This document shows positions 2,776-55,065 of a stretch of 64,000 nucleotides of DNA, piece after piece. The notes beneath the pieces are model-generated. The model saw only the letters and a program-made list of their open reading frames with translations. It did not search any database and had not been told where the DNA came from. The DNA is from Neophaeotheca triangularis (lineage: Eukaryota). The stretch lies in assembly GCA_054600435.1 (NCBI GenBank), contig BAAIJX010000045.1:1-64000 (forward strand), in the 5' to 3' direction. Each line of letters begins with the position of its first letter. Positions within the stretch are counted from its first letter, which is position 1. The position numbers were made by a program, and so were the translations under genes.

Positions 2776-4367
2776 ATGGTCAAATCAATCGCAAATCATG
2801 ACCTGCCCGCTCCACCGACAGGCAAATACCCGGCCAAGGATCACGTTCGAAGGGTAGCGAAACACATTGCCGAGAATGGCGGTCCCAACACGGGCATCAT
2901 CTACGTCGAAGGGCAAATGACAAAGATGGTCGAGGTCAGAATAGTTCCACAGCGTTGACCTTCGAACACAACTGGATCTTCTCTAACCCCCCTCCAGGAC
3001 GACGACCAAGCCACCCATTTCCGCCAACGTCGCCACTTCTACTATGTCACTGGCTGCGATTTGCCCGACTGCTACTTTGCCTACGATATTGAAGCCGACG
3101 AATCCACCCTCTGGATTCCACCAGTCGATCCAGACATGGTAATGTGGGCGGGCATGCCGCTACTCCCCGATGCTGCTCGTGAACAATACAACATCGATCA
3201 CGTCCTCACGACCGACGACCTCAAATCGGGCAAGTCTCTCGCTTCCATGCTGAAGAACAAGTCCACGACCGTTTTCACCATCCTCGACCGCGCCGACCTG
3301 GACATTCTCCACAGCGATGAAATCGCCAAGCTGAAACCCGACATTGATACCGAGAGGCTCCGTCCGGCCATCGAGGCAAACCGTATGGTCAAGGATGACT
3401 ACGAGATTGCCATGATCCGTCACGCCAACATCGTGTCGAGCTACGCCCATCAACAGGTCTTGAAGAGCGTCCACGCCGCCAGCAACGAGCGCGAACTCAA
3501 CGCCGTCTTTGTCATGCATTGCCACGCCAACGGCTGCCGCGAACAAGCCTACGTAAGTCTAGTCCAGTCCAGTCCAACCCAACCCCAAGCCCCAGATCTC
3601 AGACTGACCCCATTCTCCCCACCCAACAGGGCTGCATCTGCGCCGCCGGCCCAAACGCCAGTAGCCTCCACTATCTGCACAATGACCAAGCCTTCTCAGA
3701 TAAACAAAACCTCCTCCTGGACGCCGGCTGCGAATACAACACCTACTGCAGCGACATTACCCGAACTTTCCCCCTCAACCCGTCCGGGAAATTCACCCCG
3801 GAATCCAAAGCAATTTACAACCTCGTCCTGGCCATGCAATCCCACTGCATGGCGCAAATCCGCGCCAACGTACGCTGGGAAGACGTGCACCTCCTCGCCC
3901 ACCGCGTCGCCGCGCAAGGTCTACGGGACCTCGGCATTCTCAACTCGGAACAAACCGTCGACGAAATCATGGAAACCAAAGTCACCACTCGCTTCTTCCC
4001 CCACGGTCTCGGCCACTTCATCGGCATGGACACGCACGACGTCGGCGGCAACGCGGACCCCGACGATCCCGACGAGATTTACAAGTACTTGCGTATCCGC
4101 GGCAGGTTGCCGGCGAACTCGGTCGTGACGAATGAGCCGGGGATTTACTTCAGGCCGTTCCCGCTCAAGCAGGAACTGGCGGATGGCAAGTGGGATGGGG
4201 TCGTGGATCAGTTGGTGTTGGCGAGGTATTGGGCGGTTGGCGGCATCAGGATCGAAGACGATGTGTGGGTCAAGGAGGACGGGTGTGAGAATTTGACGAC
4301 GGTTGTTAGTGCGCTCGAGGATGTTGAGGCGGCTGTGCTCGAGGGGAGGAGCGGGGGGGAGGAGTAG
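2776..4367 (+). CDS. pepP: Xaa-Pro aminopeptidase / prolidase (peptidase M24), 3 exons
   Basis: KYPAKDH N-terminus, FRQRRHFYY, LLLDAGCEY..YCSDITRTFP, FFPHGLGHFIGMDTHDVGG, VTNEPGIYF, GGIRIEDD. Introns at 2935-2997 and 3553-3629. Confidence 0.93.
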
Positions 4368-18010: not shown

Positions 18011-18658
18011 GACGGCTAGGGGTCGGAGGAGGTGTGGTTGCGGATAATGGTTGGCACCTCTCAGGGTGTGAAGATGGAGGCGGTTAAGGTGAGGGTGAAG
18101 ATGTCAGATGTCTTGGCTGGGTCAGACACGCAGGGTGAACAATAATGTTGGACGACGGGAGGGCGAGGGTGGGCGGCTCGTCGTCAAGTCGGAGGGCGGG
18201 GAAGCAGCGGTTGTTGGACCGCAGGTGGCAGGTGCACCTCAGGGGTCGGTTGGCTGGAGATGATGCCTTGGTGTAGCCAAAGACTGGAAGGAGAGCAATC
18301 GAAGACGAGGTCGAGTTTGTTAGGTAGTTACAGGAGTAGTAGACGGTGACTACCTACTGTAGGTAGCTCAGAGTCGTCGTAAATAACACAACGGCATGAA
18401 CGGGAGCCGACATCCACGATTTGGAGGGGGGAGGCGGTGCTCGGACCCTGACTGCCGAAATACGGCAAGGCTGAAGTTTAACTTAACGTTAATCACGTAC
18501 TGCTCTATTACATAAGCCGTGCGTGACGCGCGACTGCCCACCACACGTGCCAAGCTAAGCTACCTTACCTGGAGCTACCTCCCAACACCTGGGCTACGCT
18601 ACTTCACTTCACTTTCGAATCCGAACAATATCCTTCCTGATCGGGTAGCGATATCAAC

Positions 18659-20266
18659 ATGGGTCTCATCACAAAAGCCAAAGGCGCTCCCAAGTCAGCC
18701 GACGGCCGCAGCTCCGGCGGTGGAGTCAAGTTCATTTGTAACGTGTGTAGCAACGACATCACTTCCACCGTCCGGATACGATGCGCCAGCAAGCAATGCC
18801 CGGACTACGACCTCTGCGTGCCCTGCTTCTCCACGGGACAGTGCAATCTCCACCATGAACCGCGCAGTCACCCGTACCAGGTCATTGAGCCGCATAGCAT
18901 ACCAATCTTCGAGGAGGGGTGGGGCGCCGACGAGGAGCTGCTATTGTTGGAAGGGGCAGAACAGTATGGGTTGGGTAGCTGGGCGGATATCGCCGACCAT
19001 ATTGGAGGCTTCAGGGAAAGGGACGAAGTTCGCGACCATTATATTCAGACATACATCGAATCCTTGCGATTTCCCCTCCCTGAACGCGCCAGTCCCCAGG
19101 ATACGACCCTGTCCGACAGTATCCCACGTGAAGAGTTCCAGGCCCGTAAAAAGCGAAGGATAGAGTCGCGAAAGGAAGCCATCGCAGATGCCGCCGCTAC
19201 AGCTCCTACTCCTGCCAAGCCCACTTCCAGCATACCAAGTTGCCATGAGGTGGCAGGATACATGCCTGGACGACTGGAGTTTGAAAATGAATACTTCAAC
19301 GAAGCCGAAGAAGCAGTCCAGCACATGCAATTCGCACCGGAGGAAGGTCTGAACACCACAACAGGAGCTTTTGACCCAGAGACCGAGCTCAAAATGGTCG
19401 TCATGGACATCTACAACGACCGGCTGACCAACCGCATCGACCGCAAGCGTGTCATCTTCCACCACCGCCTGCTCGAATATCGCAAAAATACTGCCCTTGA
19501 CAAAAAGCGCACAAAAGATCAACGCGACCTCCACCACAAACTCAAACCCTTTGCGCGCATAATGTCCCACCCGGACTTCGTGGCCTACAGCAGCGACCTC
19601 GAAGCCGAGCAAAACCTCCGCCAAGCCATAACTCAACTCCAAGAATGGCGCCGCCTCCGCATCCCAACGCTAGCCTTAGGCGAAAAATACGAAGCCGAAA
19701 AAGCCGCCCGACAAGCCCGCAATACGCAATCTCTCGGCGCTTTCGACCGCATGAGCAACGGCGTCCGACCCTCGAACAAGGCCCCGGCGCCCCCCGAAAC
19801 CGCCACCGCAGTCACCGAGTACACCACCAGCAAAGACATCCCCATCCGTTTAACGACCAACCCCACGCAACCCGAGTCCACCGACCCAGCCTCCCTCCCC
19901 TCCGCCCTTCCCACCGAACCCTCCGCCACAGCCTCAAACCCAACCCCCAAACGCGCTCCGCTTGCCCCTATCCCCAACCTCCCGCCCCTCTCGTTAAACT
20001 CCACGCACACCGATTCCCAGCTCCTGCTTCCGGAAGAACTCGAACTGTGCTCAAAACTCCGATTGCACCCGAAGGCTTACGGGAGTATCAAGCTGAGAGT
20101 GCTGCAAGAGGCTATGCGGAATGAGGGACGGTTGAAGAAGAAGAATGTTCGCGAGATTTGTGGGTTGGATACTACCAGGGGTGGGAGGCTTTTTGAGTTT
20201 TGGGTTGAGGGGGGGGTTTTGGGGAATGGAGCTGGTGGGGGTGCTGGGGGTGGGGGGAAGGGTTAA
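18659..20266 (+). CDS. ADA2: Transcriptional adapter Ada2 (SAGA complex)
   Basis: ZZ zinc finger (CNVCSNDIT..CPDYDLCVPCF), SANT (WGADEELLLLEG..YGLGSWADIADHIG), GYMPGRLEF and C-terminal SWIRM-like LLLPEELELCSKLRL. Confidence 0.95.
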   Translation: MGLITKAKGAPKSADGRSSGGGVKFICNVCSNDITSTVRIRCASKQCPDYDLCVPCFSTGQCNLHHEPRSHPYQVIEPHSIPIFEEGWGADEELLLLEGAEQYGLGSWADIADHIGGFRERDEVRDHYIQTYIESLRFPLPERASPQDTTLSDSIPREEFQARKKRRIESRKEAIADAAATAPTPAKPTSSIPSCHEVAGYMPGRLEFENEYFNEAEEAVQHMQFAPEEGLNTTTGAFDPETELKMVVMDIYNDRLTNRIDRKRVIFHHRLLEYRKNTALDKKRTKDQRDLHHKLKPFARIMSHPDFVAYSSDLEAEQNLRQAITQLQEWRRLRIPTLALGEKYEAEKAARQARNTQSLGAFDRMSNGVRPSNKAPAPPETATAVTEYTTSKDIPIRLTTNPTQPESTDPASLPSALPTEPSATASNPTPKRAPLAPIPNLPPLSLNSTHTDSQLLLPEELELCSKLRLHPKAYGSIKLRVLQEAMRNEGRLKKKNVREICGLDTTRGGRLFEFWVEGGVLGNGAGGGAGGGGKG

Positions 20267-35905: not shown

Positions 35906-37646
<1,741 letters not shown>

Positions 37647-38288: not shown

Positions 38289-39191
38289 CTAACGGGGTTC
38301 GACTTCCCACAGCTTAGGATCCACGGCATTCATGAGGGCGAGAATGATCGCTTCGCCACGAAGATCGAGCAGTTTGCGGATGGTTTCGATGTTCGCAATA
38401 TGCTGTGTCCAGGAGGCTTGCGCAGAGGCTGTTAATTTAGGGGCAGGCCCTTTCTTGAATTCGACGCGCAGGCCTTGCGAAGGATTCAGAGTCAAGACCA
38501 CATCCGCGACTCCACTGGACTCATACCATGGTTTGCCAGTCGACACGCCGAGACGACGGAGGTTGCGGACAGCCCAGAGTCCCGCTCTTTTCACGAAAAT
38601 CTGTGTCACATTGCATACTCTGTCTGCCGCTGTATGGCGGCTTCCAGAAGGGCTAGCTTCTAGCTTGAGGTTTAAGCCAGCGTAGTAGGCTGCAAGAACC
38701 CGCTGCCTCATCGCTTTGTTTATATTTGCAATCGCTGGGATTGACAAGCCTTCGACGCTGACTTTATCACCCCAGCGTTGAACATCACGCACGACAGGCT
38801 CGGACTTTTCAACGGCATGCTCAATCACTCGATGCTTCAATACCTCGGGCAGATCCAACAGTCGAAAAGGCGTCGCAAACTTGGGCAGGAACGTCTTCAG
38901 CTCGTAGGCGTTCCGTTTCACGTGCTCCGGCAGACGGTTGACAACGGTCGGAGAAACGAAATTGAGCATGAAAGCGGCGCAAGCTGAAGACTTCTGCTTC
39001 TTTTGGTTCTGGTCGAGCAGTTGGTTCGCACCCGATGAGGCACGCTTCTGTACGAATCTTGGTTGGAGTACTAGACGCCAATCGTCGTATTTGACCTTTC
39101 CGGCTGCGTCCACGCGCTTGTACCACTCTTCAAAGTCGCTGCCCTCGTGGAGTAATCCGCTCTGGCTTAGCAGGCCAATCTCGGATGACAT
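38289..39191 (-). CDS. Hypothetical 300-aa protein: Gag-like N-terminus plus F-box-like motif (paralog 1)
   Basis: Intronless ORF with F-box-like PFRLLDLPEVLKHRVI. Aligns by eye along its whole length with the 40833-41717 product. Confidence 0.8.
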   Translation of the reverse strand: MSSEIGLLSQSGLLHEGSDFEEWYKRVDAAGKVKYDDWRLVLQPRFVQKRASSGANQLLDQNQKKQKSSACAAFMLNFVSPTVVNRLPEHVKRNAYELKTFLPKFATPFRLLDLPEVLKHRVIEHAVEKSEPVVRDVQRWGDKVSVEGLSIPAIANINKAMRQRVLAAYYAGLNLKLEASPSGSRHTAADRVCNVTQIFVKRAGLWAVRNLRRLGVSTGKPWYESSGVADVVLTLNPSQGLRVEFKKGPAPKLTASAQASWTQHIANIETIRKLLDLRGEAIILALMNAVDPKLWEVEPR

Positions 39192-39840
39192 CCTGGCACT
39201 TGAAGAGAGGCAAGCGAGAAACGCAGGTGATAATGCCTAGGTGGGGATTGGGCTTGTCACGCTTGTGATACTGTCGCCTCCCTGCGGTCTCGGTTTTGTG
39301 TTGCTAAAAGTGGTTCAGATCCGCCAATGGTGAATGAAGGTGTGTGGAGTGCTGGTAGTGGATGGCATGAACGGGGTGTAGTTGTTGCAGACTAGGAGCC
39401 GATGTGTTGCGGTATTGTAGTAAGAGCAGTGGCTTGTCGGGAGGTCGTCAAATCAAGGGCTAGGCTTGCGCACGAATGGAGAAGGTGCAGTTGGAGTAAG
39501 CGTGGCTCCGACCTGAGTGAGGTGCAGTGTCGGTGGGTTCAGTCTGCAGTGCGGTGCGCGTCCGCCCACGGAGAATAGAGGTGACTGAGGGTTTCCGCGT
39601 TCGAGAGAGCGTGTGTCAAGTTCGCCAAGGTGTCGTGCTGTTGCAGCAAGAAGAAGTACCTAGTATGTCGAGAGTAGAGCGTGTGAAGTTTCGGAAAAGC
39701 GTGGTGAGGTTGAGGAAGGAGCGTTGGTGTGAGTAGATGTCGTCGGAACAGGTACTTGGCTTGCCAACTAAAGAGGAAGACGCAACGGCGTAAGTGAGAC
39801 TCCCTTAATGGTACCTACTGACTACAGACATCATATTCAA

Positions 39841-40004
39841 GCTCCCGCAAGCCACTTCAACGAAACCGCCCACGTGACAAAACCAGTACGTTCGCCCCTC
39901 CACAGCAAATGTCGAATCCGGAACTCAAGCTAACTAGACCTTCAGATCCCCCTTCCCCATCCCCCATCCCCTAATAGACCTGGGTTCGAAACCCCGTGGT
40001 AGCG
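39841..40004 (+). pseudogene. Possible degenerate tRNA-like element (B-box/T-arm relic)
   Basis: CTGGG-TTCGAAA-CCCCG-TGGTAGC-G at 39980-40004. GCTCCCG at 39841 could pair 6/7 as an acceptor stem. D-arm and anticodon arm are not recognisable. Confidence 0.25.
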
Positions 40005-40832
40005 CCCGTCCCCTTTCTCAGTCACGACGTTAAATTAGCGACTGAGGCGTCGTGCAGTTCACCGACGTTAAGTACAACTGTCTCGAAAGCTAAACCAATT
40101 CTTCATTGAATGAGTTCACTTTACCTCTAGTGCTTAAGTTACTAGAGGCTTTCTTTTTTCGTCTTTTGAACTTCTTCACAGAATATGCCAATCGGGTGGT
40201 GAGGGAAAAGACGGACGATTAGCGTTTGATTCTACTTCACAGCAATTGTCGACGACGTATCACGTGATACCCAAATCCGAAATAACAAGATTCTTGTCCT
40301 ACTACAGTGCAATTGGAGACGCATCAGGGGTAGGTGTGAGCAGGAGCAAGCGCAATGAGGAATGTACTTTTGCCCATCTTTGCACAGCCTGGAGCTAACG
40401 AACAGGGGCTGGAGAGAATGTTTTTGCAGGCCAGCTAATCGTCGACGCTAAGTTTATCTTCTGGAATAACGCGCTCAACAGTATGCCGACCCAGCGGTGG
40501 GAAATGACCTCTGCACGGCCAGATGCTCCGCTAGCTGATAGCCTGATGCTCGTCCAGGCCGTGACCCGTTCTTTACGCTTGAAGCCTCTAAAACCCTTCG
40601 CCGTCCCTGCATGCGCGCCATAGCGGCCATACCATTCCAGCACAACCAGCAGCTGCCTGTGCATACCCCCTTGAAGCTTTCAATTCGTCATTCTCCTCAC
40701 TACCCATCATTCAATCGAGAGCCCAGATCTCTAGGACAGTGGACTACCGACATGCCTTCGTGAGGCGCTAAAGATCCACGCCTGTATCTTGATGTTGGTA
40801 ACCGCTCGTGTTCGCTTCATTATTGCCACCAC

Positions 40833-41717
40833 CTAGTATCCTTCGAGCTTGAGTATGCCCTCATCCCACAGACTTGGATCGCCGGCAATGGCCATAGCCA
40901 GACATTCACCCTGGAGTCCAGCCGCTAATCGCATCGTCTCTACCCTCCTGACGTGCTTGCTGAGCTTCGCCTTGGACGCTGCCGCCAACGCCCTTGATAC
41001 ATTGACCGTCAGTCCTTTCAAAGGGTGGAATTGGAAATCGACCAGGACCGTGTCGTCACATTCTTCACCTATGCACCAGCAACCGGGCCAACACGGGCTT
41101 TGAGGGCCACTGGCTCCAAACTTGACGCTGAACCGTCGCACATAGCGGATATGGTGAGTGCCAATGAAAGCAACAAAGTCTCGAATAACCTCGACAACGG
41201 CTTCGCCACACCACGCATCGGTGATACCTGGACAGAGGTGTTGGTAATATAGCGGCAAAAGCTCCCTACGGATTTGCGATGAGGCCTGCACGAGCGGTGT
41301 GGAGCTGACTTCTCGCAACCCGCCCTTCACATCAAAATTTATCTCTGGCCGTGTGTTGCGTAAAACCTCGGAGAAGATTCGAAGCCTAACTTCAGGAGGA
41401 AGATCCATCAGTGGGAAAGGTTGGGCGTTTTTGGCGAGCCATTCCATGAGCGATTTCCGGCGCTTTCTCGCTTCGTTTGGCATCCGGGCGAGGAGGCTTG
41501 GGGCTATCTTTGCCTTGAGAATGCCGAGATCGAGCAGGTTCGAGTCGACGGATGGAGATGATGAAAACATTGAGATCCGCCGAGGCTCGCCAATATCGCA
41601 AAAGGTGCTGGACTTGCTCAGGGCTTTGAAAAGGTGGTTTAAGCTTTCTTTCATTTCTTCGAAATTTCCCTCATAGAGCAGTCCGCATTTGGTCAAGGTT
41701 CCGAGTTGTTCACTCAT
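40833..41717 (-). CDS. Hypothetical ~294-aa protein: Gag-like N-terminus plus F-box-like motif (paralog 2)
   Basis: ATG 41717 MSEQLGTLTKCGLLYEGNFEE matches paralog 1 MSSEIGLLSQSGLLHEGSDFEE. F-box-like PFPLMDLPPEVRLRIFSEVL and shared C-terminus (GLQGECLAMAIAGDPSLWD vs DLRGEAIILALMNAVDPKLWE). Confidence 0.8.
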   Translation of the reverse strand: MSEQLGTLTKCGLLYEGNFEEMKESLNHLFKALSKSSTFCDIGEPRRISMFSSSPSVDSNLLDLGILKAKIAPSLLARMPNEARKRRKSLMEWLAKNAQPFPLMDLPPEVRLRIFSEVLRNTRPEINFDVKGGLREVSSTPLVQASSQIRRELLPLYYQHLCPGITDAWCGEAVVEVIRDFVAFIGTHHIRYVRRFSVKFGASGPQSPCWPGCWCIGEECDDTVLVDFQFHPLKGLTVNVSRALAAASKAKLSKHVRRVETMRLAAGLQGECLAMAIAGDPSLWDEGILKLEGY

Positions 41718-42720
41718 CGTGAATATCTCAGTCGCGCTTGCAGTGGAAGGGTAAGTGAAGAAGAAGGGTCGGAGGACAGGATCTATCGGTCGTGGCCGAA
41801 CGCACTCAAGAGGAGTCTGGGTTTCGTTTTGCCTGTGGCTGTCGAGATTCCGAGATTCCAAAGGTCTTGATTCGATCCCAGCCTTGCCGGGTTCCCGGTG
41901 CCGGTCCGTCTTGACTTAGCCGAAGTAACCAGACTGCAGCGTCGTGCTAGGGTGAAGTGAAGTCAGAATTGGAGATGCTGCTCTCCCGAGTCCTGGCTCG
42001 ATGGTATCGGACCGGTTTTCCGTATCAGCGGTTTTGTCGAGAGATTTGCAGGAAGCAGTATCGGTACTGCATCGAGGCCGAACTATCTCGTGGCAGACCT
42101 CCCACGGGAGGTGTCGCTGATCCGCTTGAATGGCACTACGGGTGGCCAAGGGATTGTGACTTTGTGTTGTGTTGAGGAGAGGTGAGTTTCGGAAGCAGCG
42201 CTTGGAGTGCAGCAGCTGTAAAGATGGCGGGTCTAGACAGCTACGTTGAGTCCCACTAAAGAGCTGTTTCAGTGGTATATGCCGGAAAGAGGCGGTTACT
42301 GGGGGACAGAGGCACTGAACTGGGGCTGAGAAAAGCAAAACGGGAGCTGCTTTAGTTTCACAGCAAGTGAAACTCCGCTGTCGATGAAGATTGAAGTTGG
42401 AAGGAGGCTTGCAGGGAGGTAAAGCACATTGTTCATTAGCAAAAAATGACTACAACATGGTTACCACTGCTGAAGACTAAAGCGACTCATTGGTCCGACT
42501 ACAAGTTAACTAGCTCGTACACCATACACTCGCTAAGACCCTGCTGTAGTTTACAATGTCCTTTGTCCATCGACACTCCGAAGGCAAAACGATACAATTT
42601 TGAACCGCCCATGACGCTTTCCACAACGGCACTCCTATACTTGTAGGCTCGATGCTTCCTCTATCGCGACGTATCCATCTCCCCTAGACCACGCTCAATC
42701 ATCCCGTGGCACTGTGTCTC

Positions 42721-43164
42721 TCAGTCACCCACTTCCTCCGAATCTGAATCGTCTACTAACTCCAAGGCCAACGTCTGCTTCCCCATGCGAAGCACCTCAA
42801 GCCTTATCTCTGGAGGGAGATCCTTCAGGCGGAAGGAGTGGCGGACTCCTCGAGGCAATGCATCGAAATCTCTGTCCCTGACATCTGGTATCCTAGAGCA
42901 TAGCTCATCGCGGGCCCCTCTTAGAATGATCTCAACGATACGTGGATCGATAGCCGGTGTCAGACCGTAGATAAACTTCGGCATCTTCTGCCATGGTAGA
43001 GTGGCTTTGATCCTCCGTCCTAAGCAGCTGGCTCAGCCTCGCTGCTGCCACCAAGCAACCTCAAGAAACTTCAATATCTGGATACAGGAGACGGAGGCTA
43101 CCCGGAGCACTCGTGGCCGTCCGAGCCCCTACACAAGCAGGTAGCTTCTCATCTTTGCATGCCA
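42721..43164 (-). pseudogene. Truncated/decayed third copy of the Gag-like-F-box family
   Basis: IVEIILRGARDELCSRIP...HSFRLKDLPPEIRLEVL followed by an early stop. Upstream, in another frame, GSLRLLYPD..*..ARLSQLL resembles the GLLYEG start, implying a stop plus a frameshift. Confidence 0.55.
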
Positions 43165-44565
43165 TTCCCAGCAGCCTCAAGAGAAAATGTGACCGAGCAG
43201 GAGCCCACGACAAATTATCTATTCAAGTCCAGAATGCCTTTACTATCTCAGAGACATGTCTCCGTGAACCGATGTGTCCCCCACTGAAAATCGCTAAAGA
43301 ATCGGCCAAGTACTCATTGAGATATCGTAACTCAAGAATGCTGAAGGAGATAATGCCCGTGGCTTGATGCATCCCAAAACTAGCGCAAGATTTCACCCAA
43401 TCGCAAGCCGGTAACCAGCGCACGGACATGCAAGTGAAGATCGACCTCTTCCAAGGTTGAGAAATTGCACCGCGCATGTGCTAATTCGAGACCCAAATAT
43501 GAGGTATGGGAATACTTTCATAGCACCCTGAGTCATCTAGGACAGTAGAAAGGGCAATGGCAGGCTATACAACCGCAAGGGGAGCACCGCCGCTTAACCG
43601 AAATAGTTGAGGTGGACAGTCAATATCCCGGAAGACGATTTCGACGATGAGTTTGATGTTCGGACGTTCATCAAAGGTATACAACTACCTACTTTTGTGG
43701 ACGAACACCAAGTAGTGGCAAGTGGACCGCACCTCAGGACAGGAGCTTCTAGAGGCCCGATGGATGGGGAGGCGCCGTACCTACTTCACATCATTACCGG
43801 CCACGTGAATGACTGTGAAACCTTCGTTGCCACACATTCTCCCTAGTTCAAATGACTGACCGCCTTGGAGGAGAACCCGTGGTTGGAAGGGTGCTGCTAG
43901 ATACCCGTATCCCATGAATCCCTGAGACCTTTATATCCTTACGACTTTATCAAGGTCAATCGGTCTTTATCAAGCGAGTACTCATTGCCTTCGGGGGTCT
44001 ATAAGCTGAGCAAGCCCAAGGCGCCATATTCGCTTTTGAGTCGATACAAGGCTTCGCTCGAAGATACGTTTTCTTGTCTGTGGTCAAGAGCGTCGCGGGG
44101 GCGAACCGGGCGATTCGTCTTTCCGGGTGCAAGTGGTCAAAGTGATAGCGGCCGGGTTTTGTAGGAGTTCGTAGAAACCATGGTTTTACAACTAATTAGG
44201 GCCAGCTGCAGGATGTAGATTTTGGCTACGCTGGCAGATTTTTTCTCAGCCGATCGGGATATGAATGATCGCATATTAGGATGATCTCACGTGTCAGTGC
44301 TTTGCTGGCGGTATCGTACGTAGCTGCAGACTGAAAAGGGTAGCAGAAAGAGACAGGCAATGGAGGATTCTTCCTGGAGCGCGGCAGATCCATGCCAACC
44401 AAATCGGCTGTTACTGGGAGACTCGTCGCACAGTGTCGTTTTGGCCACTGAAGGTGTTGTGAAGTAATGGAGGGTACGGTCATCTCCGATAGATACTCCA
44501 GAAAGACGCAGGTCACCAAATTCTACTTTTGTACGTCCTCGTTGCAGAATCTTGCAAAAAGTAAA

Positions 44566-52747: not shown

Positions 52748-54685
52748 TCACTCCTTCCTACCCTTCCCTGCCATCTCCTCCCTCATCTCCCGCTTCATCC
52801 TAGTAATCGTGCCTACACCACCATACATCATCGCGGTATAAACTTGACAAACACTAGCCCCGGCGTTCAGAATTTCGAGACACTGGCTGCCATTCGTGAT
52901 ACCCCCGGTTGCGAAGATGACCTTAGGCTCGGCAGCCAGGCGCGAGCTAGATGGAGAAGCCGCCGAGCTGGGCGATGATGATGATGACGGTGGTGGTGGT
53001 GTGGTTGTTGAGGGGCTCGTCGCGGTCTCTGGGGATGCGGAGGTGGAGTCGGCGGCTTCCGTGTTTTGGGCTAGTGAGGAGGAGGGGGAGAGGTTTCCGA
53101 CGGGAGAGGAGGCGGGGGAGGTTTTGGACTGGTCGGGGAGTTGCAGGAGGCTCTGGGAGTCTTGAGAATCGGAGGGATTGGATGGGTTTAGGGATTTTAG
53201 GTGCGCGGCGTCGCGGGCGGTGCTTGCTTCTGTTGGGTCGGGCTCCGAGGATGCACTTTTGGGAGATGGCTTAGTGGATTCCAGCGGTGGGATGCTCTTG
53301 GCTGCTGAGTTGGGCTGGTTTGGTGTAGAAATGTTCGATTGTTTTTTCGCTGCGGACAAAGAATCGTTGTCGATTGAGGCGGTGTCCAGTTTGTTGCGAT
53401 ACTTCTTGACGAGCTCTAGTGTCCGGCTGAACATTTGCGGGCCAGAGTAGCCGCCTGCCTCTGTAAGAAGCCTTTCCTCTTCGGCTGGCATTACGTAGCC
53501 TTTTGGAATTGGGTCTGGTCGCTTTTTGGTGGTGTTTCCGACTATCACGCCATCAACGCCGCTTGCCCAGACAGCGGAGCAGATGCCCTCCACTTGGCTC
53601 TCGCCATCTTCATCAGGCGAAACTTTGACCATGACCGCTGGCTTGTTTTTGCGATCGCACGATTTTGCTGCATTCACTACCGCCGACAAGATAGCTGTAA
53701 GAGGAGCAGTGGCCTGCAAGTCACGCAAGCCAGGTGTGTTTGGCGATGAAACATTCACGACAAGAATATCCGCGTATTTGGCTAGGGTGTCGACGCAGTA
53801 GACGTAGTCAGCAGCCACTGCGGCAAGATCGTTGTCCGGAGTTGTTTTGTTCTTTGCGACCTGCACGGCCAGCAGTTTACCGGGTACCAGACTACCCGGT
53901 GGCACGCCTTCTTCGCCGTCAAGGATGAGGCGCTCGCCTTCGGGGTCCAAGCCTAGCCCGTGCTCGTAGGCATACTCTCTCACCCGCTGCCGAAGTTGCA
54001 CAGCAACGTGATCAGCACCATCAGAATTCAAACCATAGCGATTGATGAGAGCGTTTTGGGACGGAAGACGGAACACTCGAGGCTTGGGATTGCCCTCCTG
54101 GGGTCTGGGTGTTGCGCCTCCTACTTCGACGATTGCCGGGCCGAGCGCGAAGAGAGCGTCGGGGATATCTGCATTTTTGTCTATGCCAGCAGAAGTACCA
54201 ATGGGGTTATCCAGTACATGCCCAAAGACCTCAACGTGGAGATCGCCTAGCTTAACATCTTTATCTCCCCGCTCGCGTGGATGGAGATTGAAGTCGAAAA
54301 GGCCTTTGATGTACTTGATTCCGGCATGGTGGGCACCTTCGGGGTCGGAATGCAAAAGTCGCAAGGTTGGGACGACGAACCACTGGTGAATAGAAGCTCG
54401 AGTGTCGGTAACGTAGAGGTAGGTGAAGCCAAGGGCGAGTGCTATGGCCGAGCCGTACAGAGCGTTCTTTGCCCGAGTAGCTGCTGAACGAGCCTCTTTG
54501 GCTTCGGTCGAGGCATATCTATAGGGTGTCTGGCTTTGGGGTACTCTTGATGCTGGTCTTCTGGGTGTGAGAGCGTTTGCGGAGAGTTGGCGGTGCCATT
54601 GACGCTGGAAGAGGCGAGGTGAAGTCCTGTGTAAGACGTTAATGGGCCTTAGCAGCCTTGCTGACAGTTCTTTCGTCCCTTGCAT
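52748..54685 (-). CDS. URA9: Dihydroorotate dehydrogenase (quinone), mitochondrial, class 2
   Basis: Mitochondrial presequence and TM anchor, NPIGTSAGIDKN, PQEGNPKPRVFRL, INRYGLNSDG, VNVSSPNTPGLR, KVSPD, GNTT, GGYSG, ATGGI, QVYTAMMYGG. Confidence 0.96.
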   Translation of the reverse strand: MQGTKELSARLLRPINVLHRTSPRLFQRQWHRQLSANALTPRRPASRVPQSQTPYRYASTEAKEARSAATRAKNALYGSAIALALGFTYLYVTDTRASIHQWFVVPTLRLLHSDPEGAHHAGIKYIKGLFDFNLHPRERGDKDVKLGDLHVEVFGHVLDNPIGTSAGIDKNADIPDALFALGPAIVEVGGATPRPQEGNPKPRVFRLPSQNALINRYGLNSDGADHVAVQLRQRVREYAYEHGLGLDPEGERLILDGEEGVPPGSLVPGKLLAVQVAKNKTTPDNDLAAVAADYVYCVDTLAKYADILVVNVSSPNTPGLRDLQATAPLTAILSAVVNAAKSCDRKNKPAVMVKVSPDEDGESQVEGICSAVWASGVDGVIVGNTTKKRPDPIPKGYVMPAEEERLLTEAGGYSGPQMFSRTLELVKKYRNKLDTASIDNDSLSAAKKQSNISTPNQPNSAAKSIPPLESTKPSPKSASSEPDPTEASTARDAAHLKSLNPSNPSDSQDSQSLLQLPDQSKTSPASSPVGNLSPSSSLAQNTEAADSTSASPETATSPSTTTPPPPSSSSSPSSAASPSSSRLAAEPKVIFATGGITNGSQCLEILNAGASVCQVYTAMMYGGVGTITRMKREMREEMAGKGRKE

Positions 54686-55065
54686 CCTCCTCACTGCTGC
54701 GTGCCGAAGATGGCGAGTGAGGTGAGGTCACGGTTGAGTGCCGTCGGGTGATCGGGACTTGTCGTTCGTCCGTCCCAGCCACGCGGTTGCGTCGCGGCAA
54801 CGGGCCGATGCCACGCGCTTTCCAGGTTTGGACAACCCTTTTAGATTAATTTCGTCATGGAGCAGCTCGAGCGCGTCTCCCGTCTGGCTGAAAGCTCCCG
54901 AGGTCAAGATTGCGACTAAGACATCCTTCTGTTGACTCTCCCCTTCCTGCAGTTTGTCTCACGTTGGTACGAAATGCCAGACTACACACCATCAACGATA
55001 CATTCTACTGCTGGACACGACAAGACGATAACTACTTCCCCATAGCGTCCACCTCGACGAGCAAA

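Follow-up and report, generated by a model that had tools for sequence, protein, structure and literature searches.

The window, by which the whole 64,000-nucleotide stretch analysed here is meant (Neophaeotheca triangularis, GenBank assembly GCA_054600435.1, contig BAAIJX010000045.1, positions 1 to 64,000 of the forward strand), carries on its minus strand an array of genes whose products combine three domains: an N-terminal (N) domain resembling the N-terminal domain (NTD) of Ty1/copia capsids (CA), an F-box-like middle (F) domain of the 2EXR type, and an α/β C-terminal (C) domain. These genes represent a real and apparently undescribed multi-copy domestication of a copia capsid NTD into F-box-like proteins.

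Paralog 1 is an intact single-exon open reading frame (ORF) of 300 residues (38289..39191, minus strand, ATG at 39191 and stop at 38289). Residues 1–106 (38874..39191) adopt the copia capsid NTD fold in an AlphaFold model compared with solved chains. Residues 107–172 (38676..38873) form the F-box-like domain with a loop insert, which is degenerate relative to the family as the glutamate of the LPxE motif is missing. Residues 173–300 (38292..38675) form the α/β domain, which ends in H...E..R..LGL.GEA...W and has no fold match. Paralog 2 is an intact single-exon ORF of 294 residues on the same strand (40833..41717, ATG at 41717 and stop at 40833), with the same three domains placed by the family profiles at about 41427–41717 (N), 41238–41423 (F) and 40842–41207 (C). 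The two proteins align end to end with 27% identity over 314 columns (BLASTP, E 1e-21). An earlier note on this DNA had described two intact, intronless, diverged paralogs on one strand between the genes for phosphoglucose isomerase (PGI) and NAD(P)HX epimerase, with a common C-terminal domain. The uninterrupted frames, the end-to-end alignment and the C profile, which matches both proteins, bear this out.

The third copy (42721..43178, minus strand) is a pseudogene remnant consisting of the end of the N domain and the first helix of the F-box-like domain, with in-frame stops and without a C domain. It is matched by positions 56–111 of the family profile (17.1 bits, about 42939–42790), and the frame also shows a short EW..KM...L match near 43170. 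Stops occur in its frame at 43179, 43131 and 43035, and the frame ends at 42723. The N-domain profile used alone gave no significant match to it. The motifs PFRLLDLPE, PFPLMDLPPEVRLRI and SFRLKDLPPEIRL are present as described. The decayed copy is thus a real remnant, reduced further than had been described, and the ATG near 43164 that had been taken as its end lies in another frame without a match to the family.

The copies are host genes and not parts of an element, as no repeat resembling a long terminal repeat (LTR), no reverse transcriptase (RT) on the contig and no signature of repeat-induced point mutation (RIP) accompany them. None of the genome's 8 RVT_2 and 6 rve matches lies on this contig, and none of the 11 spacer ORFs tested has a Pfam match, in agreement with the claim that no LTR or pol gene is near. 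LTRs and pol (protease, integrase, RT) were not found in one unit with family genes; the neighbours at related loci are housekeeping genes. The seven decayed copia regions have no similarity to the window. All 8 copia RT matches of the genome (L022–L029) are broken by in-frame TAG or TAA stops. The composite RIP index (CRI) is -0.65 and -1.00 for the paralogs (53–54% GC) versus 1.45–1.91 for the 7 copia RT relics measured (27–39% GC). As the copia RT matches are riddled with stops, and those measured are AT-rich with strong RIP indices, RIP must be or have been active in the host fungus. Scans of the stretch returned no long direct repeat, no tRNA and no Rfam match, which ruled out explanations by an element, an LTR, a tRNA or a non-coding RNA.

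Predicted capsid fold of the N-terminal domain

Counting relatives in other genomes had been suggested by the earlier note. Searching 1.84 billion representatives of clusters at 50% identity with paralog 2 (phmmer) returned 190 proteins, one per cluster, at E ≤ 0.001, and the best 150 of these 190 were analysed. An alignment (A2) of 91 near full-length members picked by eye provided profiles of the N (1–106), F (107–172) and C (173–300) domains.

Paralog 1 was modelled with AlphaFold2 on A2, without templates or Gag rows (pLDDT 87.5, pTM 0.75), and the model was compared with 48,161 solved chains. The two best matches are Drosophila Copia capsids: 8vvw_A (Z 8.2, root-mean-square deviation 2.8 over 82 aligned residues, model 10–106 on chain 6–87) and 8s41_A (Z 7.0, 3.3 over 85 residues, model 9–108 on chain 6–90). 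Ranks 3–7 are occupied by dArc1, Arc and PEG10, so that ranks 1–7 are all capsid-derived, and retroelement capsids make up 21 of the 27 rows listed for the N domain (residues 3–112). As the Copia NTD comprises residues 1–90 according to PMC11835246, the match spans the NTD and ends at its boundary.

Among the 91 members, DUF4219 was matched in five and Retrotran_gag_3 in two at E ≤ 0.1, always on the N-terminal motif and always below the cut-off; the best match (DUF4219 in P0047) has an E-value of 0.00019 and 21.5 bits versus a cut-off of 27. Apart from F-box-like families, these two are the sole Pfam families matched in more than one member. A motif similar to L-x-G-x-N-[FY]-x-x-W is present in 31 of the 91. 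The N profile compared with a profile of three resident stand-alone Gag ORFs gave an E-value of 0.002, the F and C profiles used as controls giving 0.39 and 0.12. Clusters of copia N-termini also occur, at 0.78, among the language-model neighbours, which is a lead only. With fold and weak sequence evidence taken together, the N domain very probably derives from a copia capsid NTD.

Several results speak against this derivation. A Z around 8 lies in a range that the fold tool calls common for helical bundles and is not decisive alone. Foldseek with the full model found no match at E ≤ 0.001 in the PDB or BFVD, the family profile found none among PDB sequences at E ≤ 10, and hhalign gave a probability of just 13% for the N versus Gag profiles. 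As single sequences, the window paralogs and their N domains match neither a Gag family nor 2EXR in Pfam. In the checks by Pfam and structure that the earlier note proposed, the resemblance to Gag that it had seen by eye is supported by the two top-ranking Copia capsids and by weak DUF4219 matches in relatives, and not by the window paralogs taken alone or by Foldseek.

Similarity to resident Gags is very low. Scores against two resident Gag ORFs are 3.2 and 1.0 bits, and the family profile reached a probability of 0.5% against one resident Gag. The N profile matched none of the seven decayed copia elements, a weak test as these are heavily mutated. A long relative of the resident Gag was found in none of 419 candidates and none of 3 viral contigs.

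Closest to the N domain are the Copia capsid NTD (8VVW and 8S41, PMC11835246), which has the same fold and extent (Copia CA residues 6–90), and the Pfam families DUF4219 and Retrotran_gag_3. Unlike the Copia capsid, the family lacks a CA C-terminal domain (CTD), the zinc knuckle CX2CX4HX4C (0 of 151 family proteins), pol and LTRs. In paralog 1, no CA-CTD and zinc knuckle follow the NTD; its place is directly before the 2EXR/F-box-like domain, which is in turn followed by the α/β domain.

Two further loci of the genome carry Gag-like ORFs. An intact stand-alone copia Gag ORF of 217 residues with NTD and CTD (L017:3460-4110, G000:C14; PF14223, E 2e-12) has a CRI of -0.39, hence no RIP signature, and no long pol ORF in the 10 kb covered; it is a candidate domesticated gag gene. 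It is followed by a pair of exact 29-nt repeats and short tandem repeats. At L018 (G000:C1), two tandem ORFs (2252-2701 and 3268-3816) resemble the copia capsid NTD only, without an F-box and without RIP signature. The second matches PF14223 positions 4–71 (E 2e-7); the first has no Pfam match and aligns with the second. By their sequences, they look like a second NTD-only capture in the genome.

The F-box-like and C-terminal domains

The middle domain was matched by 2EXR in 70, DUF7730 in 29 and F-box-like_2 in 25 of the 91 members, which supports the F-box-like assignment made earlier. Its conserved columns read PF.L.DLP.ELR.RIY, then, after an insert of 20–30 residues, P.L..VSRQ.R.E.LP.[FY]Y. 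The conserved residues are L114, P115, E117, R119 and Y123 in the first part, and V157, S158, R159 and R162 in the second. This domain is the most conserved of the three, with a mean pairwise identity of 34% versus 25% for N and 21% for C. The leucine of the last NTD helix and the first leucine of the F-box are 12 residues apart in 88 of the 91 members, a spacing that suggests a rigid NTD–F-box unit.

A conserved domain follows the F-box-like part. Folded alone, it reached a pLDDT of 84.3, and its best match among known folds was a clamp-loader collar with a Z of 4.9. Foldseek found no match for it, which does not by itself mean a new fold. F-box proteins are known to carry WD40, LRR (leucine-rich repeat), Kelch or other substrate-binding domains at this place; judged by its model, the C domain is no LRR.

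Fungal 2EXR, DUF7730 and F-box-like_2 proteins (PF20150, PF24864, PF13013) have the middle domain in common with the family, and at least 13 2EXR matches occur in the same genome. Unlike the family, the other 2EXR-type proteins of the genome have no capsid domain and no full C domain. As 34 of the 38 F-box-like locus records examined in the genome (about 24 distinct places) are devoid of N and of a full C, the N and C domains mark the family. 2EXR/F-box-like genes without capsid domain were found in clusters (G000:C2 738006-740999 and 777417-781261; C4 526319-528178; C5 781600-783821). The tendency to cluster locally therefore belongs to the 2EXR group at large.

Distribution and turnover of the family

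Domain architecture was determined in 151 proteins, including the 91 of A2. It is N-F-C in 117, N-F in 20, F-C in 5, doubled in 6 and other in 3, and N is present in 143. Predicted proteins of the family with a doubled or split N domain, or with two complete units (P0018, P0028, P0058, P0103, P0113, P0145), may reflect tandem read-through or real duplications. Seven of the 30 members looked up carry organism labels (Elasticomyces, Meristemomyces, Zasmidium); a further record labelled Neophaeotheca triangularis is identical to a paralog of the genome at 183 of 189 residues. The named members belong to two orders of Dothideomycetidae, the Mycosphaerellales (Teratosphaeriaceae, Mycosphaerellaceae) and the Neophaeothecales (Neophaeothecaceae). 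Synteny, or a host-like spread over at least two families, by which co-opted gag genes are recognised in PMC8321522, is found here.

A tree of 111 rows, for which just a quick method was used, places the window paralogs as long branches (1.59 and 1.47) at an unresolved fork. Two more members lie 8 kb apart in divergent orientation on contig C107 (L020:2199-3017, plus strand, and L019:about 4430-3440, minus strand); these group together at 99. In the L019 copy, F and C lie in different frames, and the segment where the frame changes has intron-like signals.

The array in the window is flanked by the PGI gene (PF00342, 35906..37631, minus strand) and lies at the 3' end of the NAD(P)HX epimerase gene (YjeF_N, PF03853, 45243..45953, minus strand), which served as synteny anchor. 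A second anchor is the gene for dihydroorotate dehydrogenase (52751..54727, minus strand), which adjoins the epimerase gene in metagenome locus L035. One metatranscriptome, in which 9% of the words are present, provided contigs over PGI and the epimerase and none over the three family copies, which speaks neither for nor against expression. An RNA contig from which the 61 bases at 36537-36597 are missing confirms an intron of the PGI gene there.

When metagenomes were scanned with an alignment of 12 members, seven loci were found, of which five contain two or more head-to-tail copies. L034 and L035 are 99.4% identical over 3,540 bases and are therefore taken as one species. There, an array of five copies adjoins the 3' end of the same epimerase gene (protein 81% identical to that of the window), with dihydroorotate dehydrogenase beyond the epimerase as in the window, the array being inverted relative to the epimerase. 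In L036 (31-1873), a pair of family genes adjoins Ada2, the window counterpart of which (18641-20263) is 18 kb from the array; this pair marks another site of the family in the same chromosomal region.

Neighbouring copies in the arrays are 26–39% identical, and many are broken: four of five in L034, by stops or a frameshift, the fifth changing frame before C, and one of two in both L036 and L039. The birth and death of copies proposed in the earlier note are thus seen both in the window and in the L034/L035 fungus. Alleles differ in the family stretches by 9 non-synonymous and 3 synonymous changes, some of them in broken copies, whereas 112 epimerase codons show none. This ratio is near neutral and is no proof of an arms race or of positive selection. 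Open frames and conserved columns kept at 25% identity point to constraint. As far as sequences tell, the capture looks old, single and multi-copy, with fast turnover of the copies.

Possible roles of the fusion proteins

The role favoured here, tentatively, is that of an adaptor of the Skp1–cullin–F-box (SCF) type in which the capsid domain is an assembly module. The F-box-like part would dock on Skp1, and substrate choice would fall to the C domain, as is usual for F-box proteins. The CA-NTD would be packed rigidly against the F-box and would act as a protein-assembly module through which the adaptor oligomerises with itself or with its paralogs. Quick birth and loss of copies would be expected for adaptors facing changing targets. 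The D-domain in front of some F-boxes has an oligomerising role, which is the analogy used for the CA-NTD, and the SCAN domain has one as well. The SCAN domain of zinc-finger factors, derived from a capsid CTD, is likewise a capsid half turned into a module, in its case within a large family of host genes (PMC8321522). It is a Ty3/gypsy CTD found in vertebrate transcription factors, whereas the domain described here is a copia NTD.

An assembly module, although itself a tentative choice, is preferred to a capsid decoy, which is doubtful, because the NTD directly precedes the F-box, and the place where substrates usually bind is taken by another conserved domain. A single old capture, family-specific conserved residues and the distance from resident Gags also favour it. 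Other findings count against an SCF adaptor of this kind. The canonical F-box family PF00646 was matched in 1 of the 91 members (E 0.09), and the fold matches of the F region to F-boxes are weak (9o04_G, Z 3.8; 5ibk_E, Z 3.5). Single copies appear dispensable because many copies elsewhere are broken. Both the oligomerisation and the binding by the C domain are postulated by analogy.

In the decoy model, which is unlikely, the CA-NTD would join or recognise copia particles and the F-box would pass Gag on to SCF and then to the proteasome; a given paralog would act against some element family and decay once that family dies. With about the same low probability, the genes may form a fungal immune family, in which the capsid NTD would recognise or join retroelement or viral capsids for SCF degradation through the F-box, as a capsid-directed ubiquitin ligase in the manner of TRIM5 or Fv1, with diversification in tandem arrays. 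Capsid-derived factors can act on capsids; Fv1, which is distant from its target, is an example. Both Fv1 and the endogenous Gags of sheep are directed at capsids, with degradation as the outcome in sheep (PMC13709905), and Gag-derived restriction is known in fungi with Drt2 (PMC10951436). The whole NTD is kept in the family, and Copia NTDs form the centre of the capsomer (PMC11835246). Arrays of such diverged neighbours with many dead copies would fit genes that outlive their targets.

The comparison with the yeast factors is less favourable to a decoy. Drt2 and p22/p18 of Saccharomyces cerevisiae are, like the family, fungal proteins made from one Ty1/copia capsid half (PMC10951436; PMC13709905), and Drt2 is among the fold matches of the paralog 1 model (Z 4.6). 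They are CA-CTDs, near-identical to their target and precisely matched to their own subfamily, unfused, young and confined to one species, and their lattice poisoning uses the target-matched CTD (PMC13709905; PMC10951436). The family, known here from sequence and models, has a CA-NTD (the match being to Copia residues 6–90) without a CTD, is fused to an F-box, old and multi-copy. In place of near identity to an active resident Gag, 1–3 bits were found against two Gag ORFs, and 8 of 8 RT matches are already broken, the 7 measured being RIP-like. What looks like one ancient capture with a conserved motif of its own (LTxSGLLYEG, R86-x-P88) also differs from current Gags being captured again and again; drift of the N domains has gone to the point that neither window paralog matches a Gag family alone. 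The C domain sits where F-box proteins usually bind substrates, the allele differences give no sign of positive selection, and multi-copy families often capture domains of transposable elements (TEs) by numbers alone, according to PMC12062965. Were the decoy model true, fungi would have capsid surveillance at the protein level as a defence besides RIP and RNA silencing.

A reading that is less probable still accepts the Gag origin but denies Skp1 binding by the 2EXR-type motif; the protein would then be a scaffold or sensor outside SCF with its three parts in one compact unit. The near absence of PF00646 would fit, as would the insert that splits the F-box-like helices, the absence of the canonical tryptophan and the loss of the LPxE glutamate in paralog 1. 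With a junction this constant, the NTD might cover the Skp1-facing surface, and the literature that mentions 2EXR, judged by titles and the beginnings of abstracts, includes nothing on the family. Against this reading, the F part shows the highest conservation among the three domains, retains the LPxEL..I[YF] and VSR pattern and aligns to Skp1-bound F-boxes. That the N domain is an ordinary helical bundle of convergent capsid likeness, or that the genes are functionless debris, is improbable: middling Z values, sub-threshold sequence scores and many broken copies would agree with this, but fold, Pfam, language-model and profile evidence all indicate the same domain of the same superfamily, the match ending at the NTD boundary, and frames stay open at 25% identity, both across the two fungal orders and at a site of conserved synteny.

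An SCF adaptor bearing a capsid-derived assembly module would have partial precedents. F-box A2 of Caenorhabditis (a Mariner helix-turn-helix–F-box fusion) and the zebrafish F-box-CxC7 proteins also have a TE domain at the N-terminus of a multi-copy adaptor family, the donor there being a DNA-transposon domain and not a capsid (PMC12062965). According to the same source, TE domains captured N-terminally by F-box genes can act as interaction platforms, and plant DUF4219-ankyrin fusions have captured the same Gag piece, with ankyrin instead of an F-box as partner. A capsid-F-box fusion is absent from its main text, where gag, capsid and copia have 0 occurrences; its supplementary table holds 820 F-box/TE co-occurrences and may bear on novelty. 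F-box is not mentioned in the text or the three supplementary files of PMC10799480 (term search). Literature searches, which did not extend to most subscription papers, returned no description of the family.

Crtg12 and Crtg13 are, like the family, copia gag genes co-opted above the family level in Dothideomycetes, with synteny (PMC8321522). They are single-copy and belong to Pleosporales/Mytilinidiales, and are set apart from the present family by description and not by sequence. That study reports three fungal co-opted gag genes, all single-copy and none in the orders considered here, and concludes that co-option is rare; its main text mentions neither F-box nor Capnodiales. The present family is a multi-copy, cross-order copia co-option comprising at least 190 sequence clusters below Pfam thresholds. 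It keeps the capsid half that the known yeast restriction factors do not use, and offers many natural variants for asking what a lone CA-NTD does. It is also a test case for Skp1 binding by the abundant and unstudied fungal 2EXR domains. As for Skp1 itself, homologs with 33–84% identity were observed on contigs of the viral collection (L030–L032).

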